NCBI GenBank assembly: GCA_027022365.1
Contig: JALVYU010000026.1
Span: 96,001-160,000 of the forward strand
Source of the DNA: Desulfurococcales archaeon
GTDB taxonomy: Archaea; Thermoproteota; Thermoprotei_A; Sulfolobales; Desulfurococcaceae
Length of the DNA: 64,000 nt
Direction of reading: 5' to 3'
The translations under genes and the position numbers were made by a program. Positions within the stretch are counted from its first letter, which is position 1. Every line of letters begins with the position of its first letter. This document shows positions 1,012-15,033 of the stretch, one piece after another. A model generated the notes under the pieces. That model was given only the letters and a program-made list of their open reading frames with translations, made no database searches and was not told where the DNA came from.

Positions 1012-1019
1012 TTTATAAG
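1012..1019 (+). promoter_or_regulatory. Canonical TATA box of the tfb-tbp operon
   Basis: TTTATAAG 40 nt upstream of the ATG at 1052. Confidence 0.5.
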
Positions 1020-1051
1020 GATGAAAGTATTCAATACAGGGGTACAGCGTC

Positions 1052-1675
1052 ATGCTTGTCTATGATAAATCCAGGGCCGAAGTAGTGGATGCGGAGACCG
1101 GCCTAGTGGTTGAGGATAGACTTATTGATCCGGGGCCCGAGTGGAGGAGCTACAGGCCGGAGAGCCGTAGATGCCACATAATGCACCGCCGGGAACCCGA
1201 GGAACTGAGGTTCTTCCGGGGCCTAGTACCCAGATACGTGTATGAGGACGCTGGCCATATTATGAGGAAGCTGAGGCTCGGAGGCCGTGCAGGGGCCCTA
1301 GCAGCCCTTATGTATTCCGCCAAGAGGTACGGCGTACCCCTACCAGCCGAGGTATTCTACTTCATCGATTATGAGAAGAGGAGCGTCTACAGGGTCTATA
1401 GGAGGATCGTGGAGGAGCTGGGGCCGCCCGGTAGGATGGAGGATGCGGCTGTAGCCCAGGTGGCCGGGCTGGCGGTTAGACTCGGCAAACCGCACCTAGC
1501 TCCATTAGTGGTTAAACTATATAGGAGGCTCAGGGAGAGGAACCAAGGCTATAGATCCACTACCCTAGCCGCCGTAGCCCTCGTCAAAGCCGGGCTCCCC
1601 GCCCGGGAAGTCTCCAAGTATCTTGGAGTAGCCCCCTCTACGCTCTCCAAGGCATTGAAACGGGTGGAGGCCTGA
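1052..1675 (+). CDS. tfb: Divergent short transcription initiation factor B (TFB/TFIIB-like)
   Basis: N-terminal LVYDKSRAEVVDAETGLVVEDRLIDPGPEWRSY matches the TFB ribbon/GPEWR motif (Cys-less); two cyclin-like repeats (AALMYSAKRYGVP; GYRSTTLAAVAL); C-terminal HTH. Confidence 0.85.
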   Translation: MLVYDKSRAEVVDAETGLVVEDRLIDPGPEWRSYRPESRRCHIMHRREPEELRFFRGLVPRYVYEDAGHIMRKLRLGGRAGALAALMYSAKRYGVPLPAEVFYFIDYEKRSVYRVYRRIVEELGPPGRMEDAAVAQVAGLAVRLGKPHLAPLVVKLYRRLRERNQGYRSTTLAAVALVKAGLPAREVSKYLGVAPSTLSKALKRVEA

Positions 1676-1679
1676 GACG

Positions 1680-2186
1680 TTGGAGCCCCGCGTAGAAATA
1701 GTAAACATCGTCGCAACGATCAAGCTAGAGCCGATGCCAGATCCTGGAGAAGTACTGGGGAAGATACCGGGCTCCAGGCCAGTTAAGAGGTTCCGGGGAG
1801 CAATGCTGAGGATCGGTAAAACCCCTGTGCTGTTCTACAAGAAGAAAATCATAGTAACCGGGGCGAAGAATACCGAGGAGCTCAGAGACACTATAAGGAA
1901 ACTAGTAAGTGTGCTTCATAGGTACGGTATGGAAGCAAAGCCTAGGGGATACGAGATAGTCAATGTAACTGCTAAGGTGGATTTAGGTAGAAGGATAAAC
2001 CTCGTAGAAGCCGCGGAGAGGCTTGGCGGCATCTATGACCCGGACTACAGGCCATACATGGTGGCAAGGATAAACGATACAGTGATAATGCTATCACACA
2101 ACGGAAAACTAGTAATGCTGGGAGCAAAGTCCATTAAAAAATGCTATATGATTTCCGAACATGTTGTTAACAATATATTTCCGTAA
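1680..2186 (+). CDS. tbp: Divergent TATA-binding protein (TBP-like)
   Basis: Two TBP repeats: EIVNIVAT...KIIVTGAKN and EIVNVTAKVDLGRRINL...YDPD...GKLVMLGAKS; starts 4 nt after the tfb stop. Confidence 0.9.
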   Translation: MEPRVEIVNIVATIKLEPMPDPGEVLGKIPGSRPVKRFRGAMLRIGKTPVLFYKKKIIVTGAKNTEELRDTIRKLVSVLHRYGMEAKPRGYEIVNVTAKVDLGRRINLVEAAERLGGIYDPDYRPYMVARINDTVIMLSHNGKLVMLGAKSIKKCYMISEHVVNNIFP

Positions 2187-2296
2187 TACATTCTAGCCAG
2201 TAATATATTTGAGCCAAAGTGTGCTCTGCATTCTCAGACTAAGCACTGTTGCTGAAAATGTTCTATGAAATATATCCCATAAATTATCCGGAAACA

Positions 2297-2305
2297 GTAA
2301 CTATA
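2297..2305 (+). promoter_or_regulatory. Island promoter motif variant GTAACTATA
   Basis: 44 nt upstream of ATG 2341. Confidence 0.5.
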
Positions 2306-2340
2306 AGTGATAGAATATTACATGATTTATATAGAAAAAG

Positions 2341-2823
2341 ATGGTGATGTTTTTAATGAGCTTCCATATAGTTTTATCTGAGGAGGAGACATTTAATAGA
2401 CTAGTGAAGTATTTTGTAGGAAGGAGATTAAAGATACTATCTCTACATAAACCTTCACACATTAAAGTGGAAATCGGCAAATTGTTCTCACTATGGTTTG
2501 GAGAAGCGTTAGGGGTTGTGGATATCAATATTATGAAGCTGGGCAATCATAGTTTAGTCAATCTATACTTTAACTTTCTTAGGGAATATATCTCCGGATT
2601 AATATTGTCTATACTGCTATCGTTTATTCTCACTATATATGGACTACTCATAGACGCGCCCTGGGATGCTGTACTTCTTTTAGCGATTACTGTATTCGCA
2701 ATAGTTATGCTCCTAGAGGGATACAATGTGGCCGTAACAAGGAAGAAGTTCGTAGAGGAGCTATCTTTATTCGTTCAATCAATAAACTCAAACAAGGTGA
2801 ATATAAATGGCAGGCATGATTGA
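2341..2823 (+). CDS. Membrane protein (2 C-terminal TM helices)
   Basis: 160-aa ORF with a hydrophobic hairpin. Confidence 0.7.
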   Translation: MVMFLMSFHIVLSEEETFNRLVKYFVGRRLKILSLHKPSHIKVEIGKLFSLWFGEALGVVDINIMKLGNHSLVNLYFNFLREYISGLILSILLSFILTIYGLLIDAPWDAVLLLAITVFAIVMLLEGYNVAVTRKKFVEELSLFVQSINSNKVNINGRHD

Positions 2824-3877
2824 TCGTGGAGAAAGAAAAGCTGGGGTACCAGTTGTAGCTCTCATTATTACACTAGTATTCATTGCCTTATTGACTATTC
2901 TTTCACCCAAAGTCGACATCTTTACCACATCATCAACGAATAACACCGGAGGAGCTTCCGCGGACCTTGAAAAGCTTATATTAAGCAAGGTCGACCCGTT
3001 AGCCGTCAGAGAATTCGCCGTTAAACTAACAACTGATCCTCTCAATGCTTTTCCTAATCTATGGAGTAAGTATACTTTAATAGATGAGGAAAGATTCCTC
3101 GAGAAAGGCTATTACTGGTATATAAAGATTAGATTGAGTACGCTCGAAGGAATAAATGGAAGTATAGAGTCAAATACACCAGTAGATTTCTATGTTGTTG
3201 ATGAAGAAGACTTTCTACATTTCAAAGAAGGAGAATCATTCTATTACTACACAAAGCCTTCACGTATAAACATATACAGATCAAGCTTTGAGTGGAATGC
3301 ACCACGTGATGGAACATATTATCTAATAGTATATGCAAAATATGGGAATGCAAGGGTAAAACTAAGAGTCGATACATTCACGAAACCCTTCCTAAGCGGG
3401 TTCCCATATAATATAGAAGACAGAGAAGCATGGTATATATGGATAATAAACGTATGGGTCGCAAAGAACATACACTACATCCCGGATCCAAATTTTGAAC
3501 TAGTACAAGATCCTAAACAAACATTAAGGCTAAGAGCTGGAGACTGTGATGATGTAGCAGTACTAATGGCGTCTATGTATCAAGCAGTAGGGCTAAAAAC
3601 CAAATTCGCAGAAGTAGATACAGATGGAGACGGAAAAATAGACCATATAACAGTCCTAGTGTACTACCATGGAACACCTAAAGAATTCCTAGACAGCGAA
3701 GAAACAATAGCATTCATGGCAGGACTAATATCAAGACTGCCAGATGAATACTCGGTAAGATACATAAAAGGCAATAACGGCATATGGATCATAGCTGACC
3801 CATTATTCTCGGAAAGCAACTACTGTGTAGGAATGATAGAACACGAACCATACAAAATAAAAAATATATTCCCATAA
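2807..3877 (+). CDS. Membrane-anchored transglutaminase-like (Cys-His-Asp) protein
   Basis: N-terminal TM; GDCDD catalytic Cys motif, downstream DHI and IIADP complete the triad; beta-sandwich middle domain. Confidence 0.8.
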   Translation: MAGMIDRGERKAGVPVVALIITLVFIALLTILSPKVDIFTTSSTNNTGGASADLEKLILSKVDPLAVREFAVKLTTDPLNAFPNLWSKYTLIDEERFLEKGYYWYIKIRLSTLEGINGSIESNTPVDFYVVDEEDFLHFKEGESFYYYTKPSRINIYRSSFEWNAPRDGTYYLIVYAKYGNARVKLRVDTFTKPFLSGFPYNIEDREAWYIWIINVWVAKNIHYIPDPNFELVQDPKQTLRLRAGDCDDVAVLMASMYQAVGLKTKFAEVDTDGDGKIDHITVLVYYHGTPKEFLDSEETIAFMAGLISRLPDEYSVRYIKGNNGIWIIADPLFSESNYCVGMIEHEPYKIKNIFP

Positions 3878-4111
3878 ATAGCAATGTATGGGCTGGATCC
3901 TCGCGGTTTGATGATGAAGTGTTAATTGGAACGTATTTTAGCGTCGCTTAAATCATATTACACTATATATAATTACATAATGATGTTAATAATTATTATA
4001 TGTTGTTCAGATGCTTAAACAGTTGTTGTAAATTACACTGTACATGGTACTTATACGGTGTCCGGTGCTTTATTCTCGCTTTATTTATCTATACAATTCC
4101 CCATGTAGTTT

Positions 4112-4200
4112 CGATACACTGGGGAGTACACTCCAGTTTGTACTTGTGTTTATACTCCAGTTTGTACTCTGGGAGCGAGACACGAGTGTATCGGTGTACT
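4112..4200. repeat. Two 15-bp direct repeats nested inside a 9-bp inverted repeat
   Basis: ACTCCAGTTTGTACT at 4130-4144 and 4154-4168; CGATACACT 4112-4120 / AGTGTATCG 4185-4193; AGTACAC 4125-4131 / GTGTACT 4194-4200. Confidence 0.75.
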
Positions 4201-4232
4201 ATGCGGAGCATGTCACTCTACGTTATCAATAA

Positions 4233-4241
4233 GTAACTATG
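4233..4241 (+). promoter_or_regulatory. Island promoter motif GTAACTATG
   Basis: 30 nt upstream of the in-frame ATG 4263 (would fit a leaderless transcript). Confidence 0.55.
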
Positions 4242-4262
4242 GACTACGCTGGTGGATTGTTA

Positions 4263-4532
4263 ATGGTGGCTGTATTGAAGGTTGTCCAGTGTATTCTCGG
4301 CTACCTGGCGGAGAAGGAGATAGCGATGCCCATACAGGTGGAGCGTGACCTGAAAATATCGAGGTACCTGGTGTTCGGCTCCCTGATAATCATGGAGGAG
4401 CTCGGCCTCGTCGAAGCGATTGCCAAGAGGGCTAACTGGAAGCTCTACAGGATAACCGATAAAGGCAGAGAATTATTGGAGAAGGGAAAAACAGTTATAG
4501 AGTTGGAGGCTACCGGCCGAGAACCCTCTTAA
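4263..4532 (+). CDS. Winged-helix DNA-binding protein
   Basis: MEELGLVE...LYRITDKGRELL wHTH signature; ORF track starts at 4239 but ATG 4263 is more likely. Confidence 0.75.
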   Translation: MVAVLKVVQCILGYLAEKEIAMPIQVERDLKISRYLVFGSLIIMEELGLVEAIAKRANWKLYRITDKGRELLEKGKTVIELEATGREPS

Positions 4533-6465
4533 CGGCATCTACAACGTTGTCGGGGATAGCCGCTTCAGCCCCGAAACCCCTAATGTAATCCAGGTATTTT
4601 TCACCCACCACGAACAGTATTCTAGCCCCGCTTTTCCCGGCCCTCTCAATGTATTTCCTTATCTTCCCGGGATCCCTGCTGGGACGGGTCTCCACCTCGA
4701 TGAACAAGACATTACCAGTATCCCATGAATTGGCGTCTCGGTATGGTATGGCGATTACATCTGGGATCTCCCGGAGAGGCTCTTCGCCGGTATCGATCCA
4801 TGTCCATACTCCGAGGTTAAGCCTCAGCTCCTCCACGATCCTCCTGATAGCTTCCTGGTGCTCGGGTCCTCCAGCCCTCTCACCGCTAAACACCATCTCT
4901 ACAAGCCTCCTACCCTTATCCGTAAGTTTGTAGAGCCTAGGCCTCCTACCCCTACCACGGGTTCCTGCCTCATAGACCTCTACAAGGCCGAGCTCAGCCA
5001 GCCCGCGGAAAACGCCATACACAGAACTACCCGATATACCGAAGAACCCGGCAACACGCTTCTCCAAAACCTTAGTAGGCATATCGCCCTCATAGTACAA
5101 CACATACAATACATAAGCCTCTATAGGCCTGACCGGGGGCTCTTTAACCTGGATAGTACCGGGCTCCTCCTTTTCTCCAGCCTCCTCGGCTACTTTAGCT
5201 TCGGCTTTCTCCTCTACCGGGGCCCCGTAGAGTTCCAGGCTCCTTGCTATCCTTTTACTGATCTCCGGGTCATCCTCAAACATAGATCCCTGGACATCAA
5301 CGGGAATATATACTGTATTGAGGGTGAAGGGTCTAACAGGCTTACCGTGGACCTCGGTTTTAACCGCGAACCAGTAGAGAGGCAAATTGATCAAGTCTTT
5401 CTCGGAGAATATAGGCTCGTAGAGCTTGGCCAGTAGCTTAGCCGATTTAAGCCCAACCCTGAACGTTATAAAGGTTCTGCAGTTGCCTAGTATGGCGTCC
5501 AGTATCTCCCGCGGGTACTGCTCGGGATATTGAGTAGCCAGTGTAAGATATAGCTTGTACTTACGGGCCTCGGCAAGAATATCGATAAGGGTTGGAACGG
5601 TGAAGTTGTGGGCCTCGTCGATGTATAGGTAGTGTGGGATCCTCATCCTAGGAGCAACATCGATTCTGGACATGGCCGCCGAGAAAATCTTGCCGATGAT
5701 CAATGTGCCGAGGAAGTGTGAAACCTCTTCGGTGAGCCTACCCTTACTGAGATTAATGACTATGAAAGCCCTCGAATCCATGAGCTTCCTGAAGTCAATA
5801 GTGGACCTTCTAGCAGAGAATATAGGGCGGAGTATCCTGGAGCCAACGAGCTTGCTTATCTTGTTCACAACGCTGATAATAGCGTCTTTTGGTAGGCGGG
5901 GCCATTCCTCCTCCCAGAACTTAGCCACCAGGGGATCCTCGACATTAGCTACGAGCTCGTTTCTCCTATCCTCGTCGACAAGCAGATAGTAGAGATCCAG
6001 GAGACTAGTAGACCCAGGCGGCTGCTCTAGGAGGGTGTTTACACAGTTCCTCAATATATGCTCCAGCCTAGGACCCCAGAAGTCCTTGAAAAGCTTCTGC
6101 AACGCAGAAATAAACGCCTCACCCACACGCTCCCTATCCCATTCATCACGATACTCGAGGAAGTTTATCCTCACGGTCTTGCCGAATACCTTAATCGTTG
6201 TGGGGTCTATGTAGACAAGCCTATCAACTCTATCCTCGGGTATCAGCTTAACGATTTCAAGGGCAAGGTCTCCATGCGGGTCCAGCAGGCTGAATCCCTC
6301 GCCGAGGTCTATGTGTTGCTTGATAAGGAACTTGAGCAACGTCGACTTGCCTGTGCCGGATTTACCGAAAACCGCTATGTGGAGGCGATCCACCTTATAG
6401 ATCCCGTACTTCTTCTCCTTAAAGGATCCAAGGTACACTACCTCGTCTAGACGCTTAAGCTCCAC
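4510..6465 (-). CDS. VirD4/TraG/HerA-type P-loop ATPase with C-terminal wHTH and PD-(D/E)xK nuclease-like domain
   Basis: Walker A GKSGTGKS, LLDPHGDL, Walker B LYIDEAHNF, EARKY..LTLATQ; C-terminal GLVE..LYKLTDKG wHTH followed by H...IPDVI...FIEVET. Confidence 0.85.
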   Translation of the reverse strand: MELKRLDEVVYLGSFKEKKYGIYKVDRLHIAVFGKSGTGKSTLLKFLIKQHIDLGEGFSLLDPHGDLALEIVKLIPEDRVDRLVYIDPTTIKVFGKTVRINFLEYRDEWDRERVGEAFISALQKLFKDFWGPRLEHILRNCVNTLLEQPPGSTSLLDLYYLLVDEDRRNELVANVEDPLVAKFWEEEWPRLPKDAIISVVNKISKLVGSRILRPIFSARRSTIDFRKLMDSRAFIVINLSKGRLTEEVSHFLGTLIIGKIFSAAMSRIDVAPRMRIPHYLYIDEAHNFTVPTLIDILAEARKYKLYLTLATQYPEQYPREILDAILGNCRTFITFRVGLKSAKLLAKLYEPIFSEKDLINLPLYWFAVKTEVHGKPVRPFTLNTVYIPVDVQGSMFEDDPEISKRIARSLELYGAPVEEKAEAKVAEEAGEKEEPGTIQVKEPPVRPIEAYVLYVLYYEGDMPTKVLEKRVAGFFGISGSSVYGVFRGLAELGLVEVYEAGTRGRGRRPRLYKLTDKGRRLVEMVFSGERAGGPEHQEAIRRIVEELRLNLGVWTWIDTGEEPLREIPDVIAIPYRDANSWDTGNVLFIEVETRPSRDPGKIRKYIERAGKSGARILFVVGEKYLDYIRGFGAEAAIPDNVVDAVKRVLGR

Positions 6466-6502
6466 TACCCTCTCACCATCGGGAAAATGATTACGGGAGA
6501 CA

Positions 6503-6511
6503 CGTAGTTGC
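6503..6511 (-). promoter_or_regulatory. Island promoter motif variant GCAACTACG
   Basis: 46 nt upstream of GTG 6465. Confidence 0.6.
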
Positions 6512-6594
6512 AGGTTAATGGATAAGTGTGGTGTACCGACCCCTTACAAGCTAGTCATGGAGGCCTCCAAGGGATTACGGGTTAGTATTCTCCC

Positions 6595-6603
6595 GCAACT
6601 ATG
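6595..6603 (+). promoter_or_regulatory. Island promoter motif GCAACTATG
   Basis: 45 nt upstream of GTG 6640. Confidence 0.65.
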
Positions 6604-6639
6604 CTTAACCGTTCCACTCTATAACGTGGTGTATGAACC

Positions 6640-7578
6640 GTGTGGTCTTACCTCGAGATAATCCCTCACCCGGAGACCAGGATTGAACCCCTACAATTAG
6701 AGGATTTCATAGCGGCACTTTACGGTACAAGGGCTACCTGGGCATACATTATAGTATATGACGGCGGCCATCTAGGCTTCTACTACATAGTGCCTCGGCA
6801 ACTAACGAATAGTACGGTTAAGAGCCTTGAGTCAAGGTTCAACAAGATCATTATAGAGGAATCCAAGCCCCCTAGATTGATCGATTATAAATATTATACG
6901 GAGCTTAGACTGCTCAAAAGCTTCTACTACCCATTATTCCACCTAACAAGACAGAAAGAGATAGAATCCAACCCCGTAGACGTGATTGCCTCAAGCATGC
7001 TCGGAGGGGAGAGCATGGTATTAATAATAGCTACGCCAGAGCCCCGCGGAGCAGGAGTAATAGCTGGATTCGTCTACGAGAAGAAAACAGGTAAACCAGC
7101 AAGCACTGGGAAAATAATACTAAAAGAAGCCCTAAGCCTAGGAGACGCATTCTTCGGCTCAACAAGCTCTACCACGTCAAAACAACAATACGTGTATAAG
7201 CCCGAGCTAACCGAGGAGGAGAAAAGAATCCTACGTGAAGCCCAGTACAAGATGCACCACCAACTATACGCAACGAGGATAATAGTCCTAGCAAAGGAGG
7301 AAGACCTAGTCTACGATATAGCCAGTAGCTTCAATCAATTCCCATTAAATGGTTTCACCTTTAAAGTAAAAGAGGTGAACGAGAAGATCCTCCGAGAGAT
7401 AAAAGAGCTTAAACCAAGAAGACTGGGCCTGTTATTTAAGGATAAGAAAATACCGGTCCTGAGCCCTAGAGAACTAGCGGCATATGTGAACCTGCCTACG
7501 GCACTGGATACTTTGCCGGTGAAAACTGCTTCAATAATACTTAATCCCCCGCCTGAAATCCCGGAGGAAGCGGATTAA
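6640..7578 (+). CDS. Hypothetical protein resembling the N-terminal accessory domain of large VirD4/TraG-like ATPases
   Basis: Motif order YLEIIP, GFYYIVP, ELRLLKSFYYPL, NPVDVIASSM, IASSFNQF..NGF, VLSPRELAAYVNLP; family recognised from memory, not by search. Confidence 0.6.
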   Translation: MWSYLEIIPHPETRIEPLQLEDFIAALYGTRATWAYIIVYDGGHLGFYYIVPRQLTNSTVKSLESRFNKIIIEESKPPRLIDYKYYTELRLLKSFYYPLFHLTRQKEIESNPVDVIASSMLGGESMVLIIATPEPRGAGVIAGFVYEKKTGKPASTGKIILKEALSLGDAFFGSTSSTTSKQQYVYKPELTEEEKRILREAQYKMHHQLYATRIIVLAKEEDLVYDIASSFNQFPLNGFTFKVKEVNEKILREIKELKPRRLGLLFKDKKIPVLSPRELAAYVNLPTALDTLPVKTASIILNPPPEIPEEAD

Positions 7579-7645
7579 GCATTACATGCTCTTTCACTTG
7601 GCTTATTAGTGAATAGCATTACATTGATTTATCTAGGGGTATAGG

Positions 7646-8407
7646 TTGCCGGATTGGAATACTCATGTTAAATGGGCTAGTAGGCTCGGCATAGATAGGG
7701 AGATTGCAGAGTTTATCAATAAATTGATTGATGACCCTGAGGAAGTATTGAAGGATGACCCTACAGAGCTGGGTGAACTGTATAGGAGGGATCCGGAGGG
7801 CGTTAAAGCCGCCCTAATAGGACATGATTGGGGTAGGAAGGGTAAGGCTAGGCTTGACATTTTGAAGACTTACTGCCGTATACGGTTTGGGGAGAAGGGA
7901 GTAATGGCTACCGAACTACACCATGTCCTCGACTATTTAACACATATAAGAAGCCCGGAGAACCTGGCCAGAATAATTGTTAGCTCATCAATATTTCACG
8001 CGACAAGCGGTAAACCATTAAGCGAGAGGATGAAACTCGTAAAAGAATTCTACTGGAATAGAAGAAAATATTCTGAATCTCTGGAAAGGCTTACGGAAGA
8101 AATAGCGAAGCTGGACTATGAATCCTATAAGAACATAATAATCGAGCTCCTAAAGAATAAGGCACAAGAATGGGAGTTGCACAGAGAAGTCTATGACTTT
8201 GTGATCAATAACCTAGACGAGATACTGAAGGACATCGACAAGTATCTTGCAAAGAAAAGAAAACGAATAGCACGCTCACTATCGATTAACACACTAGACA
8301 AATGGACTGAAAAATTAACCGCTCTTCTCATAGGTATTATACAAGTCCTTATCCCAGTGTCTCTCGAACTGATAGCTCTCGTATCTTGTCCGTATTATTC
8401 GTGGTAG
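7646..8407 (+). CDS. Hypothetical protein, possibly a metal-dependent hydrolase (MPDWNTH...IDDP...GHDW...HHVLD)
   Basis: His/Asp-rich motifs; paralog of 1..564; the last ~30 aa overlap the convergent gene and may be read-through. Confidence 0.65.
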   Translation: MPDWNTHVKWASRLGIDREIAEFINKLIDDPEEVLKDDPTELGELYRRDPEGVKAALIGHDWGRKGKARLDILKTYCRIRFGEKGVMATELHHVLDYLTHIRSPENLARIIVSSSIFHATSGKPLSERMKLVKEFYWNRRKYSESLERLTEEIAKLDYESYKNIIIELLKNKAQEWELHREVYDFVINNLDEILKDIDKYLAKKRKRIARSLSINTLDKWTEKLTALLIGIIQVLIPVSLELIALVSCPYYSW

Positions 8408-9520
8408 TCTTGGCAGGGCTGTTGCTCCGCGGTAAATGTATCTCCCCAGCTTGATTCCTGCTTTTACTCCATAGCCGGGGCCTAGACCCGTTGCCCCACT
8501 ACCAGCGGCACTAGCTAGGATGTATCCCCTGAATACCCTCACGGCAGGGTAGACCGTGTACCCTAGTAGTGCTGAAGCGGCAAAGCTCGCGAAACCGCTG
8601 CGGCCGACGAACATTGGTGCTATGAGTGGTATTGTTAGGCTCGCGATAGCTATCATTACTTTGACGATTGCATCCTCGAGGCTTGAGCCCGGAATACCCA
8701 TTGCTATTGCAGAGGCCACAGCGATCATTGAACCGGCTACGAGCTGAACCAGTGTTAGGGCTATCAGGGTCTCGATAAGCATAGCGGCTATCCTGTTTAT
8801 CTTGGGGATGAGGCTTAGGACGAGGAGTATCGGGAGAATAGCCGCCAGGGTAGCTACCGCCAGTATCCTCACGGCCCCGGCTACGGCTACCACGAGTATG
8901 AAGAGGAGTATCAACGGGTCAATGATGATGGCCAGCCCGCCTATGCTCCCGAAGCCTATACCGAGATACCATGACAACGTATCGGGCGGGCATAGATAAT
9001 ACGTTATGGCTGACAACAAGTGGACGGAGTACTCGTAGAGAAGCATGGATAGGGGTATGAGTACGGCTATCCAGAGACTCTTCTTAACCATGAGCATGCC
9101 CTCGCCCTCCCTGATCAACCCGAAGCTCTCCAGCCCAATAGATAATGCACCGAGGACTATGGGCAGAGATAGAAGGACATAGGCTACGAGCTTAGTCTTC
9201 TCATACAACATCAGCATCTCCGGTACACGGACCTCGTACCAGGAAACATTCTTTACCGGGCCCCAATCCGCATACTCCGGAATAGGGTTCCCTGGGACAG
9301 GCTTAGACGGAGCCCTCAGCAACGGGCCGACGGCTCCCCAGAAAGCACTGTTAAGCTGGCCTGCGAGCCACTTGAAAGCGGATAGTATGGCCTCCTTAAT
9401 CTTGTTGATGATGTCCTCGATAGGGTTCCCTGAGGGCTGAGACTCAAACCCGTACCCATAAACGCCTCCGGCGGGTCCAAGAACGATCAGCAGGGCTAAA
9501 AGGACCGCGAAACCCCTCAT
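8315..9520 (-). CDS. Polytopic membrane protein, VirB6/CedA-like channel candidate
   Basis: Signal peptide plus about 7-8 TM helices and a Gly-rich basic tail; located among transfer genes; ATG 9520 preferred over TTG 9532. Confidence 0.65.
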   Translation of the reverse strand: MRGFAVLLALLIVLGPAGGVYGYGFESQPSGNPIEDIINKIKEAILSAFKWLAGQLNSAFWGAVGPLLRAPSKPVPGNPIPEYADWGPVKNVSWYEVRVPEMLMLYEKTKLVAYVLLSLPIVLGALSIGLESFGLIREGEGMLMVKKSLWIAVLIPLSMLLYEYSVHLLSAITYYLCPPDTLSWYLGIGFGSIGGLAIIIDPLILLFILVVAVAGAVRILAVATLAAILPILLVLSLIPKINRIAAMLIETLIALTLVQLVAGSMIAVASAIAMGIPGSSLEDAIVKVMIAIASLTIPLIAPMFVGRSGFASFAASALLGYTVYPAVRVFRGYILASAAGSGATGLGPGYGVKAGIKLGRYIYRGATALPRLPRIIRTRYESYQFERHWDKDLYNTYEKSG

Positions 9521-9555
9521 AATACGCCCCAAAAAGAAACAGCTTGGAGAAAGGA

Positions 9556-9564
9556 TATAGTAAC
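9556..9564 (-). promoter_or_regulatory. Island promoter motif variant GTTACTATA
   Basis: 44 nt upstream of ATG 9520. Confidence 0.45.
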
Positions 9565-9583
9565 AGAACGGTAAAAAACCGTG

Positions 9584-9991
9584 TCAGTTCAGGCTATAAA
9601 GGAAAACATTTGAACCCGTAACAACGACTACTCTGTCAGGAAATCCATATTTTTCGGGAACATACAGCGTTATCTCCCTAACCATCCCCGGCTCCACGGT
9701 TACGGATACTGCCACGGAGTACCCCGGCACACCGAGCTTAACTATCCTGGCCTCCTCCCACCCGGCATTGTATATCCAGAGCTTGACAACATAGTGTCTA
9801 TTCTCGTAAGCTACACTATAGTCCGCCAAGACGAGCCTGACAGTTTTAGCGTGTGCTTCAAGGCCTATAAGGGAGCCGATGCCCGAAAACCCTCTCGCCT
9901 TCGAGAAGAGTATAGGGTAGGCTAGAGCGAATCCAGCAATGGTTATCCCTATGAGAACGATTGCCGCCACAACGTTTGATACGGCCTTCAA
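9584..9991 (-). CDS. Archaeal type IV pilin-like protein
   Basis: Class III signal KA/VSNVVAAIVLIGITIA followed by a beta-sandwich with YNAG. Confidence 0.8.
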   Translation of the reverse strand: MKAVSNVVAAIVLIGITIAGFALAYPILFSKARGFSGIGSLIGLEAHAKTVRLVLADYSVAYENRHYVVKLWIYNAGWEEARIVKLGVPGYSVAVSVTVEPGMVREITLYVPEKYGFPDRVVVVTGSNVFLYSLN

Positions 9992-9994
9992 GGC

Positions 9995-10501
9995 TCACCC
10001 TACTCCTCTCCTGCACATAATGTTGACGGACACAGTCTTCGTGTTGCCGTAGGGATCCGAGTAGGTTATCTTGACAACATATGTTTTCCCTACACCTATG
10101 TCCTGCTTGTCCAGGGTGAAGGTCCATGTATCACTGTATGTCTCGCCGGGAAGTATCTGCTTCCCCACGTTGATCGTGTACCTGGTCCCCCACTGCCCCT
10201 GGCTATCCGTCCCAATGATCTCTATCTTCGTTATGGTGGCGGGATCCGTGCCCGAGTTAGCCAGCTTAACGCTCACCATGTAGTCGTACTCGGTCTTCCA
10301 CTGCCACCCCTGCTTAACCCTGCTGGTGCCCAGATAGTATAGCTCGACGCCGCTGACCGCTATGGCTGCTCCCTTAGGGTTGCTACTCTTTATCGTCGTG
10401 GTCATGTAGTAGCCCAGCAGCAATGCACCCGCTATAGCCACACCTATCAAGACCACGGCCGCTATGACGGGGCTTATAGCCTTCATCCTCTTCCTACCCA
10501 T
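9995..10501 (-). CDS. Archaeal type IV pilin-like protein
   Basis: Class III signal RKRMKA/ISPVIAAVVLIGVAIAG, NSGT motif; ATG 10501 preferred over TTG 10519. Confidence 0.85.
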   Translation of the reverse strand: MGRKRMKAISPVIAAVVLIGVAIAGALLLGYYMTTTIKSSNPKGAAIAVSGVELYYLGTSRVKQGWQWKTEYDYMVSVKLANSGTDPATITKIEIIGTDSQGQWGTRYTINVGKQILPGETYSDTWTFTLDKQDIGVGKTYVVKITYSDPYGNTKTVSVNIMCRRGVG

Positions 10502-10535
10502 AGAGGGCACCCGGTACAAGATACGTGGTAAAAGA

Positions 10536-10544
10536 CATAGTTAC
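10536..10544 (-). promoter_or_regulatory. Island promoter motif GTAACTATG
   Basis: 43 nt upstream of ATG 10501. Confidence 0.65.
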
Positions 10545-10560
10545 GTATCATGAATGCTCC

Positions 10561-10569
10561 GTAACTATT
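10561..10569 (+). promoter_or_regulatory. Island promoter motif variant GTAACTATT
   Basis: 42 nt upstream of ATG 10603; back-to-back with the 10536-10544 copy. Confidence 0.6.
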
Positions 10570-10602
10570 CCTCGCCACAACGCTCATAGCGGGAGAGAAG
10601 GT

Positions 10603-11100
10603 ATGGCCAAGCTACTAGCACACCAGATCCTGGGACTAGCGGTAGCCTACTATGTCCTAAGACCAGGAGACCTCGTGCAGGCATTCATATATGGAGGCCT
10701 AGCCCTATTAGGCTCCGTGACTCCTGATCTGGACGGGTTGCGTAAACACCGGGCAACCCTCCACAACATATTCGCCCTCATCCTGGCCGGACTAACGATA
10801 TATATGGTTCTTAATACTGTTGAAGCCCTGAACATGGCTCCGGTAAACCTGTATCCGGCCAGTTCAGCTGTAGCCTACATACTAGCCTATCTAAGCCACC
10901 TACTAGCCGATATACCGACTGGATCCGGAGTAGCAATTCTCTATCCACTATCTAATAAGAAGATCGGAATACTAGGCCTCAAATACGACAATATGGTGTA
11001 CAACGGTTTACTGGTAGCCCTAGCTACTCTGCTCCTCTACTCGTTCTTCACCAATGCACTGACCCCTTATTATACTATAAGGGATTGGTTTATCCCCTGA
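10603..11100 (+). CDS. Membrane-bound metal-dependent hydrolase (YdjM/LexA-binding family)
   Basis: H...GSVTPDLD..HRATLH...YLSHLLAD..T..G...YP motifs; ATG 10603 preferred. Confidence 0.85.
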   Translation: MAKLLAHQILGLAVAYYVLRPGDLVQAFIYGGLALLGSVTPDLDGLRKHRATLHNIFALILAGLTIYMVLNTVEALNMAPVNLYPASSAVAYILAYLSHLLADIPTGSGVAILYPLSNKKIGILGLKYDNMVYNGLLVALATLLLYSFFTNALTPYYTIRDWFIP

Positions 11101-11163
11101 ACCAAGCATTCATGGTATGTACCCCAACGGCTACCGAGAAAAGCTTGAGGCCTAGTTGTTGAA

Positions 11164-11172
11164 GCAACTATG
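11164..11172 (+). promoter_or_regulatory. Island promoter motif GCAACTATG
   Basis: 47 nt upstream of ATG 11211. Confidence 0.65.
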
Positions 11173-11210
11173 TATCCAGGATTCCTAGGTCATGAAAGGG
11201 GTGAAAAGAT

Positions 11211-11438
11211 ATGGGCTTGGTCGTGGTCAGGACCTCTCTAGACCTTGAAAAGCTGGCCAGGCGACTGAAAAAACTCGGGTACGAGGAGATAACGCCAGGA
11301 GACCTCGCAGAGCTCTTCGGCACAAACAGGATTTGGGCGGGGAAGATACTCGCCAGGATGGAGGAGCTCGGTCTGGTGGAGAGGCTGAACTCCCGTAAGG
11401 CCAGGCCGGCAAAGTACAGGATCATTGTAAACCAGTAA
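11211..11438 (+). CDS. Small winged-helix DNA-binding protein
   Basis: ITPGDLAELFG...AGKILARMEELGLVER; GGGGTG SD. Confidence 0.8.
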   Translation: MGLVVVRTSLDLEKLARRLKKLGYEEITPGDLAELFGTNRIWAGKILARMEELGLVERLNSRKARPAKYRIIVNQ

Positions 11439-11443
11439 CTATG
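11435..11443 (+). promoter_or_regulatory. Island promoter motif GTAACTATG
   Basis: 46 nt upstream of TTG 11481; overlaps the upstream stop codon. Confidence 0.65.
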
Positions 11444-11480
11444 CAGGAAGTAGCCCGGGAAGTATTAACGGTGCACGGGC

Positions 11481-11813
11481 TTGAGGCTGTGGGTAAAATT
11501 TAAGAAGATATCCCGGCTCATACCGCTGTGGCTGGCCACTGGTTTATCGGCGGTGGCCTACGCCCAGGGAGGGGAGGCCCCGCCCGAGGAACTCACGGAA
11601 ATGGTCGACAAGATCCTGAGCCTGCTACAGTACATAGGGGTAGCAGTGCTTATAGGAGGAATGATCTATGCGGGGATTCAGCTCGCGGCGGCAGACACAC
11701 CGGAGGAGCAGGCCCGGGCAAAGAAGAGGATAGCAGCAATACTCCTAGCAGGAGCCATAATGGCTTTAGCCAAGCCTATAGTGAGCTGGCTCACCGGATT
11801 GAATCCGCCCTAA
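11481..11813 (+). CDS. VirB2/TrbC-like conjugative pilin
   Basis: Cleavable leader ending AYA/Q, two hydrophobic helices separated by a charged loop (EEQARAKKR); T-rich terminator-like tract follows. Confidence 0.8.
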   Translation: MRLWVKFKKISRLIPLWLATGLSAVAYAQGGEAPPEELTEMVDKILSLLQYIGVAVLIGGMIYAGIQLAAADTPEEQARAKKRIAAILLAGAIMALAKPIVSWLTGLNPP

Positions 11814-11914
11814 CTCCCTTTATTTTTCTCCGACTCTATAATTTACTTTTATGTCATTAGAGTAAACCATAATATATTCTCAGCAATATATCATATCAGG
11901 GGAGGGGAGTAGCC

Positions 11915-12358
11915 CTGAGAGAGCCTACGGGAGATGTTAAGGTTAAGAAGCTGGGGAGACAGCTTCTAATCAATATTCCTAGAGACGTAGTGGCTCATCT
12001 TGGCATGAAGCCGGGCTCCTTGGAAATAGTGTTGATGACCAGTGATAAGATTGTGCTTAGACGGGGCATGGGCCCGGTCAGGGTAGTGGATGTGGGGAGG
12101 GGGAAGCTGAGACTGTATATTGGTGAGGATAAAGCCCCCTTCAAAGAAGGAGAGCGGGTCCTGGTAACGGTCCAGGACGATAAGCTGGTGGTCAAGCGTA
12201 TAGACTACTACGTCGTGAAGCCGACCAAAGGGCGGGGACAGTACAGGGTAAACATACCCTGGGAACTAGCAGAGAAAACCGGCCTGGATAAGTATCGATT
12301 AGTCAAAATATATAGTGATGGAAAAAGGGTAGTGCTGGAGCCTTTCGCCGAGATATAA
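11915..12358 (+). CDS. Tandem AbrB/MazE/SpoVT-domain DNA-binding protein
   Basis: Repeated INIP..V..HLGMKPG / FKEGERVLV / VNIPWELAEKTGL units; frame is open back to CTG 11915 after a GGAGGGG SD (ORF track start 11990). Confidence 0.7.
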   Translation: MREPTGDVKVKKLGRQLLINIPRDVVAHLGMKPGSLEIVLMTSDKIVLRRGMGPVRVVDVGRGKLRLYIGEDKAPFKEGERVLVTVQDDKLVVKRIDYYVVKPTKGRGQYRVNIPWELAEKTGLDKYRLVKIYSDGKRVVLEPFAEI

Positions 12359-12363
12359 TAAAT

Positions 12364-12416
12364 ATTATGTGTTAAGGGCATAATATTTAAATAATATTAT
12401 GTCCTAAACACATAAT
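12364..12416. promoter_or_regulatory. 24-bp inverted repeat (operator) flanking the TATA box of the HEPN-MNT operon
   Basis: ATTATGTGTTAAGGGCATAATATT (12364-12387) matches the reverse complement of 12393-12416 at 22/24, around TTTAAATA. Confidence 0.7.
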
Positions 12417-12418
12417 GG

Positions 12419-12808
12419 TTGAGAATATTGGAACAGTGGAGAAAATACTTGGAAGCCGCTAAGAGATTCTTAAGATCAGCCGAGAAAATCCTAGATGAAT
12501 CACCAGAAGCAGTACCGCTATTAGCTCATAGAGCATTAGAACACATGATCATGGCTCTCTCATACTACTATACCCCAGAAGAAGCAAACTTACTCAACAC
12601 CCACGGCCGTAGGAGGAGCTGGATAACACGAATGATCCACCAGGGAAAAATACCATACAGACTCCTATCAATATTCGATGAGCTAACGAGGATCTATAAG
12701 AGGAGCACATATTTATTAGAGAACGGAGAACTAGCAAGGAGATCCCTAGAACTCGCCAAAGAGGCTTTGGAGAATATAAAGGAATCATTAAAGGGCGGCA
12801 CAGAATGA
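12419..12808 (+). CDS. HEPN domain protein (toxin of HEPN-MNT pair)
   Basis: YLEAAKRFLRSAE...AHRALEHMIMAL...TH...STY helical HEPN pattern; overlaps the MNT start (ATGA). Confidence 0.8.
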   Translation: MRILEQWRKYLEAAKRFLRSAEKILDESPEAVPLLAHRALEHMIMALSYYYTPEEANLLNTHGRRRSWITRMIHQGKIPYRLLSIFDELTRIYKRSTYLLENGELARRSLELAKEALENIKESLKGGTE

Positions 12809-13413
12809 GTCTCCCCACCAACATATTGATAGGGATCCTCCGAGAGATAACCAAGGAAATAATCCGAGAATGCAGAAACGTATACCAGGTCATACTCTAC
12901 GGTAGCTACGCCCGCGGAGATGCAGGTCCTAAGAGCGATGTAGACCTCCTAATAGTATCGGAGGACCCGAGAATATGCGAGGAAAAAACTATGAGAATAG
13001 GGGCTGAAAAAGGACTATCAATACTTCAACCAGTAGCTATCTCACCAGACGAACTAACTGAGCCCGAGAAGAAGAAACTATATCTTAATGCCCTACTAGA
13101 AGGCCTACTACTCTACCAGTCCCCAGCATCAGAACCAGTCAAGACAGCACCCCCAAAATACAAACCATACCTAATCATAAAATATAGAGCACCACCAGAA
13201 CACCGGAGAAAACTCACTGGCACAACAGTCGTTCAAAGAGGCCACAAGATGAGAGCACGAGGACTCATAGAAAAAATGGGAGGAATAAGATTAGGGCCCG
13301 GAGTATTCATGATAGAATACACGAAATGGCCACCACTAGAACTAATCATGCAAAAACTAAGAGTAGAATACAAGATAAAACACATAATACTAGCCAAAAC
13401 AGATTTCATATAA
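12805..13413 (+). CDS. Minimal nucleotidyltransferase (MNT) with C-terminal extension
   Basis: VILYGSYARGDAGPKSDVDLLIV. Confidence 0.9.
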   Translation: MSLPTNILIGILREITKEIIRECRNVYQVILYGSYARGDAGPKSDVDLLIVSEDPRICEEKTMRIGAEKGLSILQPVAISPDELTEPEKKKLYLNALLEGLLLYQSPASEPVKTAPPKYKPYLIIKYRAPPEHRRKLTGTTVVQRGHKMRARGLIEKMGGIRLGPGVFMIEYTKWPPLELIMQKLRVEYKIKHIILAKTDFI

Positions 13414-13471
13414 AAGTATATGATTTAAATGTGAAGCAAACGGCTTTTCCACGGATCACGAGTATGTAGCC

Positions 13472-13796
13472 ATAGCTACAGCGTGGAAAGGCGGAGCACG
13501 AAGGGAAAACCGTGACTGGAGCAGGTTCACCTATGGGATAAGGATAGGAAGGCGCGGTAGAGACGCCCTATTCAGCAGAGCCTGGAGCTACGTCGAGCTA
13601 ATCATTGAGGATAAGTACCGTATAAGCGTGGAGATAACGGATTCATTCTGGAGAAAATGCTCAGAGCTCAGGCACGAGTTCTTTAAACACTACTTCAGAG
13701 AAAAAGAATATAATCCATGGCCCAAAAGGAAACCCACCAAAATTCATGCTCGTACATGTAAGGGATAACGTGTTTAAGCTATACCCACTAGACTAG
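13472..13796 (+). pseudogene. Frameshifted small conserved-hypothetical gene
   Basis: IATAWKGG...YGIRIG...DSFWRKCSELR...PWPK, continuing in the +1 frame as GNPPKFMLV...FKLYPLD*; no in-frame ATG/GTG/TTG start. Confidence 0.55.
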
Positions 13797-13902
13797 TATC
13801 AATGATCTCAATAGCTGGAAGATCACTACGCATTTTGGACACCGTTGATACGGAGATATAATGAAACATAGTTATATGTAATTCATTACCGTTGAACATA
13901 AT

Positions 13903-14553
13903 TTGTTACTCGACAATAATACAGTATATAGAGGCTTCCAGAGGCGTAGAAGAATTGAAGACAAAATATCTCGAAGCATGATTGAATCAAAGCTTATCCA
14001 ACTAGGTCTTGATAAGATAACATTTAAGAATACTAATCAATTTAAACGATCTAGAAATATCAGAGCAAAGATCTCAAAATTGAAGAAAGAACTCCGTCGG
14101 AAAGGCTTATCAAAAGAAGAAATTGAAAAACATGTTGAAGAGCTAAAAGATAAAGAGGAGGAAAAACTCCGGAGAAGAGTAGTCGGATTAATAGCTGATA
14201 TAGTATACAAACTTATCCGTGGAGGAACAACCAGTAAGCGGCTTACAAGGATCCCTTATTATAAGAAATGGTATTTAGAGAAATACCTAGACTTCCTAAT
14301 ACACCAAGGCATGATTAAAGCCATATACAGAGGGCCGCGGCCCAAAGAATTCGAAGATGAGAGATGCAGAAGGGTGCGTTCTATACCTGGGGATCCTTGG
14401 GATAAAGACCCTTATAGAAGCGGAGAGCTGAAGATATGGCTCTTTTACACGACAGGTAATAAGACTCTTAGAGAGAAGAGACTGAAATGCTGGGCACCAT
14501 ATATAGTGATTGATTTCTCTCCGCTAATAGATAGAGTTTCCGGTGATAAATAG
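13903..14553 (+). CDS. Basic hypothetical protein (coiled-coil plus possible wHTH)
   Basis: 216-aa ORF; LEKYLDFLIHQGMIK resembles a wHTH helix 3/wing. Confidence 0.6.
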   Translation: MLLDNNTVYRGFQRRRRIEDKISRSMIESKLIQLGLDKITFKNTNQFKRSRNIRAKISKLKKELRRKGLSKEEIEKHVEELKDKEEEKLRRRVVGLIADIVYKLIRGGTTSKRLTRIPYYKKWYLEKYLDFLIHQGMIKAIYRGPRPKEFEDERCRRVRSIPGDPWDKDPYRSGELKIWLFYTTGNKTLREKRLKCWAPYIVIDFSPLIDRVSGDK

Positions 14554-14556
14554 GTT

Positions 14557-14991
14557 TCAGAGAAAGCTTCTGATTATTTCTTCGGCTAGAGGCTGGATGG
14601 TGTAGAACGCTATAATAGATACTACTATGACTATAATTGCTCTTAGAGTATTTCTCACTGTAAAATCTATTGTTTTACTGGTAAGGACAGCTAGTGCTAT
14701 GGAGGAGAGTAGCATAGACGATTTTATCTCGTTCAACAGATCGGATTCGATGCTTACCGAACCTATGGGAACTAGATCGGTGAGTTCACTGCTAACATTG
14801 ACTCCCGAAGCGAAGCTGGTGCTCAGCCCTGTTACTAGTGAAACTGTTAATACCAGCATTACCGGGGTGGTGTAGGCTAGGAGCTGCAATACCTGACGGA
14901 CACCGAGATCCCCTATAAACGGAAAGCTGAACAGTGGTTGCATCCACCAAGGTTCGTCATCAACTGCTGGAACTCTAACTTCTCTAGGCAT
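14557..14991 (-). CDS. PrgI/VirB3-like membrane protein
   Basis: N-terminal VRVP...PLF...LGVRQVLQLL followed by TM helices. Confidence 0.5.
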   Translation of the reverse strand: MPREVRVPAVDDEPWWMQPLFSFPFIGDLGVRQVLQLLAYTTPVMLVLTVSLVTGLSTSFASGVNVSSELTDLVPIGSVSIESDLLNEIKSSMLLSSIALAVLTSKTIDFTVRNTLRAIIVIVVSIIAFYTIQPLAEEIIRSFL

Positions 14992-15024
14992 TAACTATAC
15001 CAATATAGGTGAGAACGCCAAGAG

Positions 15025-15033
15025 TATAGTAGC
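15025..15033 (-). promoter_or_regulatory. Island promoter motif variant GCTACTATA
   Basis: 42 nt upstream of ATG 14991. Confidence 0.45.

Follow-up and report, generated by a model that had tools for sequence, protein, structure and literature searches.

The stretch of DNA analyzed here (the window) comprises 64,000 nt of contig C26 of the genome of a hydrothermal-vent archaeon (G000; 1.74 Mb in 44 contigs), which shares its GTDB family with G414, a metagenome-assembled genome labelled Desulfurococcales. Judged by borders and gene content, an integrated conjugative-type element (or island) of about 58 kb lies partly in the window. The element carries two adjacent genes for proteins resembling the basal transcription factors TFB and TBP, as well as a set of transfer and pilus genes that are preceded by a 9-mer, GYWACTAYD, at the place where host genes have their TATA-like sequences. 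In archaeal and eukaryotic initiation, TBP bends the TATA box and TFB/TFIIB reads its flanks. We propose that the two proteins and the motif form a private TBP-TFB promoter code, a sigma-factor-like switch carried by the element, and we see the case for and against this mechanism as evenly balanced.

The tfb-like gene (1052–1675, + strand) encodes a protein of 207 aa and the tbp-like gene (1680–2186, + strand) one of 168 aa. Only 4 nt separate the stop codon of the former from the start of the latter, a TTG with GGTGGAGG 11 nt upstream. A canonical TATA box (TTTATAAG, 1012–1019, + strand) lies 40 nt upstream of the ATG at 1052. The first-pass annotation of this DNA had described adjacent tfb and tbp genes behind a canonical TATA at 1012; both genes and the box are indeed present, and the box is retained in relatives, where GCTTTATAAGG (loci L009 and L013), TTTAAATA (L007), and TATATATA (L014) occupy the same place. 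A canonical TATA thus precedes tfb in five of the six aligned loci, the copy in L006 being decayed. The two genes are neighbors in 7/7 related loci with sequence upstream of tbp, a count that omits L012 (36 nt of upstream sequence only) and L008 (an unrelated TBP, 32%).

Two observations concern the surroundings of this operon. A GGCRAAACTRTT block at 961–975, about 88 nt upstream of the tfb start, is shared by the window, L007, and L014; apart from one additional A it looks like the 9-mer, and it may serve as a site of feedback or of a regulator. In two related elements, a radical-SAM gene of the spore-photoproduct-lyase family is located at or near tfb-tbp (L014:1594-2652, L009:5959-7026), and the left part of the G000 island contains three radical-SAM genes (L020:9855-14851). 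By analogy with the Ups and Ced systems, these genes may indicate a link to UV-damage repair.

All statements on the folds and DNA contacts of the two proteins derive entirely from sequence alignments. The Pfam TBP family (PF00352) matches the frame 1680–2186 in two stretches (1.1e-18), and a profile of the TBP-like family aligns end-to-end with solved archaeal TBPs (1mp9, 4.6e-23, residues 5–167 on 13–183), so that both place in the 168-aa protein the two tandem repeats expected of a TBP. NCBIfam TBP models reach up to 2.5e-21 on this protein, yet score far under their cut-off (76 vs 181 bits). In TBPs, four phenylalanines, two per repeat, kink the TATA box, and the DNA-facing positions are known from solved TBP-DNA complexes. 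The TBP-like protein has only the pair in repeat 1 (F38 and F52, both invariant). This repeat contains the Asn, the Val, and both Phe as in the host TBP, whereas in repeat 2 of the family Val is replaced by Thr, one Phe by Arg (R124, invariant in 14/14 sequences), the other Phe by Ser or Thr, and Thr by Leu, Ile, or Trp. In the alignment with the host TBP, the two stirrups lack 3 and 2 residues; in solved complexes the C-terminal stirrup is the docking surface for TFB. Since the members of the family are otherwise about 50% identical, the invariance of these DNA-contact substitutions points to purifying selection on a changed specificity. The family comprises 17 proteins among 5.8 billion. Its gene is found in one of the 401 genomes of our phylum sample, and four further matches (35–38% identical, in frames of about 200 aa) are presumably host TBPs. 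Outside the element, G000 encodes one ordinary TBP, two full TFBs, and one TFB3-like protein of 202 aa.

The TFB-like protein is more strongly reduced. On the frame 1052–1675, Pfam finds Zn_Ribbon_TF weakly and under its cut-off (5e-5) and HTH_23 at residues 172–205, while phmmer retrieves only the second half of a TFIIB zinc ribbon and the beginning of the B-reader (1pft, 3.7e-6). Alignment of 13 family members against host TFB1 with hhalign (probability 97.5%, E 7e-12, 203 columns) pairs residues 2–40 with host residues 22–60 and residues 57–205 with host residues 128–300. Most of host residues 61–127 is skipped, and about 23 aa stand in place of about 72 host aa in the B-reader/B-linker. 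The protein begins mid-ribbon, with stop codons immediately upstream and an identical start in 13/13 aligned members. It has DAETG instead of the C-x-x-C-G knuckle and hence does not have the four ligands of a zinc ribbon; the ribbon of host TFB1 itself has two Cys only. A short B-reader is present but a B-linker is not, and neither part is found at the extent of a canonical TFB. The half ribbon without Cys is followed, after this short B-reader, by a predicted compact two-cyclin core and a C-terminal helix-turn-helix (HTH). This last region aligns by profile with host residues 128–300, over both cyclin repeats of the host TFB, and with residues 115–300 of many proteins of about 300 aa, and Pfam recognizes only HTH_23 in it. 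The recognition helix reads VTEVTVRNRYKEL in the host and VAPSTLSKALKRV in the TFB-like protein, where it is invariant within the family.

The TFB-like family comprises 14 proteins among the same 5.8 billion. A search of 1.84 billion representatives with its profile yielded 136 proteins at E ≤ 0.001, with two clusters under 1e-30; the rest are mostly proteins of about 300 aa that match in two stretches (ribbon and core), together with a few that are either short fragments or long proteins matched in many stretches. A single distant cluster of TFB-like proteins, P0035, matches at E 1.7e-42. The gene is present in two of the 41 genomes sampled from the family (G000 and G414) and in none of the three other genomes of the genus, and no TFB-like relatives were found in the viral contigs searched.

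Copies of the motif GYWACTAYD number 24 in the window, where 13.5 are expected (2/100 shuffles attain 24). Thirteen of these copies lie in 1–15128, where 3.23 ± 1.78 are expected under a first-order Markov model and 0/1000 simulations attain 13; the other 48,872 nt contain 11. Ten of the 13 island copies point at a gene at a distance of 42–47 nt, counted from motif base 1 to the start codon, and the claim that ten island genes have the motif at near-constant spacing is therefore correct. The three remaining copies (1850 on the − strand, 3816 on the + strand, and 10405 on the − strand) lie inside open reading frames (ORFs) without that spacing. For six of the ten genes we set the start codon manually, at the first candidate with a Shine-Dalgarno sequence; the automatic caller retrieved 5/10. 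Among all 6-mers in the region −62 to −30, GTAACT ranks first (6/51 island genes vs 5/1794 others, p 1.4e-7), and the next ones overlap it (CCGTAA, AACTAT, and CGTAAC). The full 9-mer at −48 to −40 is found in 7/51 island genes vs 1/1794 others (p 6e-11). The sole host gene with the 9-mer at island-type spacing (43 nt; G000:C31:488406, − strand, 120 aa) may be a chance occurrence.

The position of the motif is also that of the host TATA box. TATA-like hexamers of the host have their maximum at −48 to −41 from the start codon (1271 host genes with a Shine-Dalgarno sequence), and the motif slot coincides with this peak; the Shine-Dalgarno leaders of G000 appear as a G-rich region at −14 to −8 (1504 crude gene starts). 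In seven promoters of the core of the element with 50% GC (4.5–12 kb), no TATA-like run was seen by eye between −60 and the start codon. The Shine-Dalgarno sequence begins 29–35 nt past motif base 1, so that transcription starting some 26 nt past the motif centre would leave a leader of 12–16 nt.

The ten oriented copies are distributed over the whole portion of the element in the window. The first (GTAACTATA, 2297–2305, + strand) lies 44 nt ahead of o2341, which starts at 2341 and encodes a membrane protein, followed by a transglutaminase-like gene (2807–3877). This copy is ambiguous, because it reads GTAACTATAAG with a TATA-like CTATAAG and could equally be an ordinary TATA box. The second (GTAACTATG, 4233–4241, + strand) is located 42 nt ahead of the TTG at 4275 of a winged helix-turn-helix (wHTH) gene (4275–4532) with GGTGG at −10, and it is retained in L006, L007, L009, and L010, with a TTG or GTG at +42/43 in each. 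We dropped the alternative that this motif overlaps the wHTH start codon (autoregulation), given the TTG/GTG with a Shine-Dalgarno sequence at +42/43 in five loci and the 12 unconserved upstream residues. On the opposite strand, GCAACTACG (6503–6511, −) precedes by 46 nt the GTG at 6465 of a gene for a VirD4/HerA-type ATPase (4510–6465, − strand), a coupling-protein-like protein with a C-terminal PadR wHTH domain (Pfam DUF87, TrwB_AAD_bind, TraG-D_C, and PadR; NCBIfam VirD4-like and, weakly, CedD). The orthologue in L009 has GCAACTATA at the same 46 nt. The divergent site GCAACTATG (6595–6603, + strand) lies 45 nt ahead of o6640 (6640–7578), which is followed by o7646 (7646–8407), and corresponds to GCAACTAAG at 43 nt in L009.

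Downstream, GTTACTATA (9556–9564, − strand) stands 44 nt ahead of the ATG at 9520 of a polytopic membrane protein gene (8315–9520, − strand). Hydropathy indicates about seven hydrophobic segments; the protein has no family match in Pfam or NCBIfam and is a candidate for a VirB6/CedA-like channel. Two type IV pilin-like genes (o9995, then o9584; 9584–10501, − strand), whose products begin with a sequence resembling a class III signal peptide (NCBIfam arch_flag_Nterm; UpsA and BasC weakly), are preceded by GTAACTATG (10536–10544, − strand) 43 nt ahead of the ATG at 10501. This site forms an inverted pair, with 16 nt between, with GTAACTATT (10561–10569, + strand), itself 42 nt ahead of the ATG at 10603 of a YdjM-family membrane protein gene (to 11100). 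A further GCAACTATG (11164–11172, + strand) lies 47 nt ahead of a MarR-like wHTH gene (11211–11438), and GTAACTATG (11435–11443, + strand) 46 nt ahead of a VirB2/TrbC-type pilin gene (11481–11813). The last site (GCTACTATA, 15025–15033, − strand) lies 42 nt ahead of the ATG at 14991 of o14557 (14557–14991, − strand), a membrane protein gene; its paralogue in the second part of the island opens the VirB4 operon.

The motif is also conserved between related elements. In seven orthologous promoters compared between the window and L009, the proteins of which are 65–97% identical to their window orthologues, positions 1–7 of the motif are identical in 49/49 cells, positions 8–9 in 64%, and the following 26 nt in 41%; the motif core is retained at 8/8 orthologous sites in L009. 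In L014 the motif (GTTACTATA) still lies 42 nt ahead of the orthologue of o14557, although the TBP-like protein is 50% identical, and the motif is retained in elements of different genera. We rejected the possibility that it is an upstream activator site with a weak TATA box downstream: there is no consistent AT-rich block at +10 to +25, and this stretch is only 41% conserved. Taken together, the data support a motif that is real, oriented, element-specific, conserved, and placed in the host TATA slot.

They likewise support that the tfb-tbp pair and the motif travel together. Another 38 genomes of the 401-genome sample contain distant relatives of the VirD4-like ATPase (≤45% identity). The first-pass annotation had pointed to transfer loci without the pair as a check, and the outcome agrees with its expectation: 18 of the 19 distant VirD4-like loci retrieved, all from genomes in which no TBP-like gene was found, are without the 7-mer core near the gene start. 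The locus in G094, for example, encodes VirD4-, VirB4-, and o6640-like proteins and a protein of 330 aa but no TBP-like protein; it contains three motif matches over 32 kb, with no gene start among their positions, and shows no motif enrichment. The 330-aa frame (L059:8981-9973, − strand) lies between the VirB4-like gene and a filamin-like gene and has the N-terminus of a Cys-less TFB ribbon/B-reader, followed by an unassigned C-terminal portion. We considered it as a TFB-TBP fusion and discarded this idea, as the N-terminus is TFB-ribbon-like (89%) but the probability of a TBP likeness is 0.2% and there is no Pfam match. Another related locus, L006 (= G414:C93), is a decaying element with an internal TAA in the tfb-like gene and about 50 residues of the VirD4-like gene left.

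The element itself extends beyond the span of 1012–15033 assigned to it at first. Its right border in the window is at 15128, where synteny with the same-genus genome G404 begins; leftward it leaves the window and continues as far as G000:C26:77424, and C26:247677-272377 holds its second part. The window portion (1–15128) belongs to segment I1 (33.7 kb, G000:C26:77424-111128), and the second part, I2, measures 24.7 kb, which gives the total of about 58 kb. Both are absent from G404, in which the outer flanks adjoin directly and overlap by 15 nt, and the 136.5-kb host segment between them (C26:111128-247677) is inverted relative to G404. A 15-bp repeat, TCAGCCCTCACACGG, is found at C26:77410-77424 with an inverted copy at 247677-247691. 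A tyrosine integrase gene (Pfam 1e-22) starts 51 nt inside the left border and is followed by a serine resolvase/invertase gene (L020:3885-4496). The element thus shows the integrase, the attachment (att) repeats, and the absence from close relatives that mark an integrative and conjugative element (ICE).

Its transfer genes are divided between the two segments. To the left of the window, I1 encodes the tyrosine integrase, the serine resolvase, the radical-SAM proteins, a TFB3-like pseudogene, and two wHTH proteins. In the window, it encodes the VirD4/HerA-type ATPase, the VirB2/TrbC pilin, the seven-segment membrane protein, the pilin-like and wHTH proteins, and a HEPN/nucleotidyltransferase pair. 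I2 contributes a VirB4-type ATPase (L035:10499-12328, NCBIfam 3.7e-42), a PilB/T2SSE ATPase, a PilC/T2SSF protein, type IV pilins, and ParB-DUF488. Motif promoters occur in I2 as well, 43 and 45 nt ahead of two genes of the pilin locus, with a one-mismatch copy 42 nt ahead of the VirB4 operon. Of the transfer genes expected in an ICE, those for VirB4, the VirD4/HerA ATPase, and the VirB2/TrbC pilin are present, and a VirB6-like protein is predicted. No relaxase was found in the element, which is usual for archaeal systems (PMC9905601). The matches to Ced/Ted components in NCBIfam are all sub-threshold (CedB 2.4e-12, 46 vs 700 bits; CedD 3.5e-6), and the pilin matches T4SS_pilin/TrbC rather than any Ced model.

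The two segments share six inverted repeats of 67–325 nt that are 73–98% identical. We favor a single element split by an inversion, based on the att repeat and the single integrase. I1 and I2 may instead be two related elements that recombined, as the six inverted repeats, an integrase-like fragment in I2, and a tRNA gene at the I1 border could indicate. This intron-bearing tRNA gene (15138–15292, − strand; Rfam 44.5 bits with the full model) was missed by ARAGORN. Its distance from the right border of I1 is 10 nt, on the outer side, and such a gene is a classical integration target. The TFB3-like gene of the element (L020:17467-18175, − strand), about 1.8–2.5 kb left of the window, encodes a zinc-ribbon-like N-terminus and a coiled-coil-like middle part. 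An intact version of this element protein (P0020 in L009, 4414-5058) is 29% identical to the 202-aa TFB3-like protein of the host, and the copy in G000 has an in-frame stop.

Other features of the window portion include a HEPN and nucleotidyltransferase pair (toxin-antitoxin-like) and AbrB/MazE-like genes (12419–13413); one AbrB-like segment has a 98% identical duplicate in I2. A block of about 60 nt (3884–3945) between the transglutaminase-like ORF and o4000 is near-identical in the window, L006, L007, L009, and L010, while the flanking proteins are merely 39–72% identical. It has no Rfam match, RNAalifold predicts a weak hairpin with no compensatory pairs, and a 13-codon frame is retained in four of the five loci. 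Possible identities of the block include a small RNA, a leader, and a DNA site, for example an origin of transfer (oriT).

In the mechanism that we propose, host TBP and TFB would transcribe the tfb-tbp operon of the element from its ordinary TATA promoter. The TBP-like and TFB-like products would then form an element-specific initiation platform recognizing (C)NGYWACTAYD, a sequence that would stand in for the TFB recognition element (BRE) and TATA box at the promoters of the transfer and pilus genes. The regulon would include the genes for the VirD4-like ATPase, the VirB2 pilin, the polytopic membrane protein, the type IV pilins, and two wHTH proteins, together with the pilin genes of I2. 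Transcription would start about 25–30 nt downstream of the motif, just ahead of the Shine-Dalgarno sequence. The conserved repeat 1 of the TBP-like protein would read the TA-rich 3′ half of the motif (TAYD), and the altered repeat 2 (Arg, Ser/Thr) would read the 5′ half (GYWAC) together with the changed recognition helix of the TFB-like protein; this assignment follows what we take to be the orientation of TBP on DNA. The way in which a half-and-half motif (GYWAC/TAYD) matches a half-altered TBP is suggestive. Binding, the protein part responsible for each motif half, the start sites, and the temporal order are what we infer from the sequences. A search for sequencing runs yielded 13 of DNA type, from five studies, and none of RNA.

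The two-step switch formulated in the first-pass annotation is partly supported, by the TATA promoter, the private motif, the altered residues, and the joint occurrence of pair and motif. That the pair alone redirects RNA polymerase (RNAP) is doubtful, because the TFB-like protein does not contain the RNAP-recruiting and DNA-opening parts of TFB; in canonical TFB, the ribbon, B-reader, and B-linker dock RNAP and help to open the DNA (PMC7289017). Since the first zinc knuckle and the B-linker are missing, a helper probably completes RNAP recruitment and opening, either host TFB or TFE or the TFB3-like protein of the element family. A bolder form of the proposal, to which we lean somewhat less than evenly, is a self-contained, horizontally mobile initiation cassette. 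In it, a TBP with a base-reading Arg instead of DNA-kinking Phe in its second repeat, and a miniaturized, zinc-free TFB locked to it, would direct host RNAP to TATA-less promoters outside the use of any host factor and would run an orthogonal “late-gene” program of pilus and DNA-transfer genes in any host.

Several points weigh against the proposed code. The motif was selected once the data had been inspected, and the start codon was assigned manually in six cases. Without zinc ligands and about 50 aa of the B-reader/B-linker, the TFB-like protein may be unable to support initiation alone. The comparison with pair-less loci uses distant relatives (≤45% identity), the promoters of which would have diverged anyway. 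Finally, the pair or its helpers have decayed in two genomes, as seen from the in-frame stop in the TFB3-like gene of G000 and the TAA in the tfb-like gene of G414 (L006).

The motif might instead be the operator or activator site of a wHTH regulator of the element, with host TBP and TFB carrying out initiation. We consider this unlikely, though the element family does encode at least five wHTH/HTH proteins that co-occur with the motif, which also speaks against our proposal. The candidates are the product of 4275–4532, the MarR-like protein (11211–11438), the PadR domain of the ATPase, and an ArsR-like and a 76-aa wHTH protein encoded left of the window. Three of them are themselves encoded behind motif promoters (4233, 6503, and 11164) and would therefore be poor primary activators. 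The inverted motif pairs (10536/10561, and VirD4/o6640 in L009) would suit dimeric regulators, but these pairs are also back-to-back divergent promoters. The motif as such is non-palindromic, faces its gene, and keeps within a 6-nt spacing window to the start codon at 10/10 sites; moreover, it occupies the host TATA slot, with no other TATA-like element seen in the seven GC-richer promoters. If a wHTH protein were the regulator, the pair might act elsewhere, by damping or competing with host transcription or in partition, a function hinted at by the published occurrence of TFIIB beside ParB in ICEs (PMC6563490).

Rather improbable, in our view, is a hybrid, non-orthogonal complex in which only one of the two proteins, most likely the TBP-like one, is a specificity factor and works with a host TFB, or in which the TFB-like protein acts as a trans activator on host TBP/TFB, like TFB3 in Sulfolobus. 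The missing zinc knuckle and B-linker of the TFB-like protein fit such a complex, and so does the behavior of TFB3, which is unable to replace TFB and activates in trans (PMC7289017). Suitable partners are at hand as well, with two full TFBs and a TFB3-like protein in the host and a TFB3-like gene in the element family. Nevertheless, all seven loci have tfb and tbp as strict neighbors with 4 nt between them, and the two families are equally rare (two TFB-like clusters under 1e-30 and 17 TBP-like proteins), which argues for their co-evolution as a pair. The shorter C-terminal stirrup of the TBP-like protein, located at the docking surface for TFB, also argues for a matched partner.

It is very improbable that the motif is merely a strong-BRE/weak-TATA variant read by host TBP and TFB with the pair as a decaying or neutral passenger, because, even though GTAACT fits at 5/6 positions what we take to be the crenarchaeal BRE consensus (a point against our proposal), the site at 2297 reads CTATAAG, and pseudogenised copies exist, the motif has this position in just one of 1794 host genes, the DNA-contact substitutions are invariant in proteins about 50% identical, and the motif is retained across elements in different genera.

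Parts of this system have counterparts in print. TFIIB homologues have been described in all thaumarchaeal ICEs and, in other archaea, near type IV secretion or pilus loci (Krupovic 2019, PMC6563490; Makarova 2016, PMC4858521), and here, too, a TFB homologue is found near VirB4/VirD4, pilin, PilB/PilC-type, and ParB genes (ParB-DUF488 in I2). The described homologues consist of a zinc finger and one or two cyclin domains, whereas the present one is ribbon-truncated and Cys-less, and it is strictly paired with a divergent TBP and an assignable private motif. The term “TBP” has no occurrence in the main text of either paper; their supplements may list neighboring genes. The analogy of haloarchaeal TBP/TFB paralogues with sigma factors is also of long standing (PMC3404096, PMC7289017). 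Particular TBP-TFB combinations are proposed to confer promoter specificity there as here, but those paralogues are full-length, of the TATA/BRE type, and mostly part of the host network. The pair in this study is element-borne, rare, and patchy (1/401 and 2/41 genomes), its TBP is without half of the intercalating residues, and its presumed cognate sequence is not a TATA box.

In Sulfolobales, TFB3 controls Ups pili and Ced DNA import (PMC6101591, PMC9905601, PMC7289017), and thus represents a TFB-family factor dedicated to pilus and DNA-exchange genes, as suggested here. The element also encodes Ced/Ted-like parts, namely a VirB2 pilin, a VirB4 protein with the CedB match (2.4e-12), and proteins with weak CedD and UpsA matches. 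TFB3 has a ribbon and no DNA-binding core, acts on top of host TBP/TFB1, and is chromosomal; the reverse is seen here, with a predicted core and HTH, half a ribbon, an own TBP, and a mobile location. Ced/Ted are chromosomal importers, whereas the predicted transfer system described here is related in kind and is located on a mobile element. The Ced/Ted paper (PMC9905601) contains neither the term TBP nor the term TFB.

Outside the archaea, poxviral VITF-3 is an atypical TBP/TFIIB-like heterodimer for promoters of the intermediate class (PMC12917281). It resembles the system predicted here in that a parasitic genome has its own divergent TBP/TFIIB pair for a stage-specific non-TATA promoter. 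In contrast to our case, in which host RNAP would be used, it works with a virus-encoded RNAP in a eukaryotic virus, and there is no evidence of relatedness beyond the common TBP/TFIIB ancestry. TRF2 is a TBP paralogue with changed intercalating residues that directs TATA-less promoters; it is eukaryotic, host-encoded, and has no dedicated TFIIB partner. Metazoan TRF2/TLF, which is related to TBP, has been described as not binding TATA (PMC4422821). The novelty claimed in the first-pass annotation is accordingly narrower than stated, since TFIIB homologues of ICEs and pilus loci and the sigma-factor analogy are already published. In the main texts covered, we found neither a TBP partner with a matching non-TATA promoter on such an element nor any account of an element-borne TBP and TFB pair with a non-TATA promoter; the supplements of the papers on ICEs and type IV pili may list TBP-like neighbors.

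The extent to which a TBP/TFB pair can be re-specified has so far been studied mostly through haloarchaeal paralogues and eukaryotic TBP-related factors. The element described here provides an apparently matched set of protein pair, promoter, and regulon, with about a dozen promoters sharing an 11-nt element from which the host genome is essentially free, and with sequence changes that, within TBP, fall on the DNA-facing side of a single repeat. If the bolder form of the proposal is true, the cassette would be, for archaea, the first natural equivalent of the sigma factors carried by phages or plasmids in which TBP is also included, and it would supply an orthogonal promoter system ready for use. 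Should the pair bind the motif, the system would allow a direct test of how the asymmetry of the TBP repeats sets promoter polarity and specificity, would explain the timing of transfer-gene expression in archaeal conjugative elements, would test whether a TFB still functions without zinc ribbon and B-linker, and would offer an orthogonal promoter system for hyperthermophiles. Should the pair not bind it, the motif would still define the regulon of an uncharacterised regulator carried by the element.

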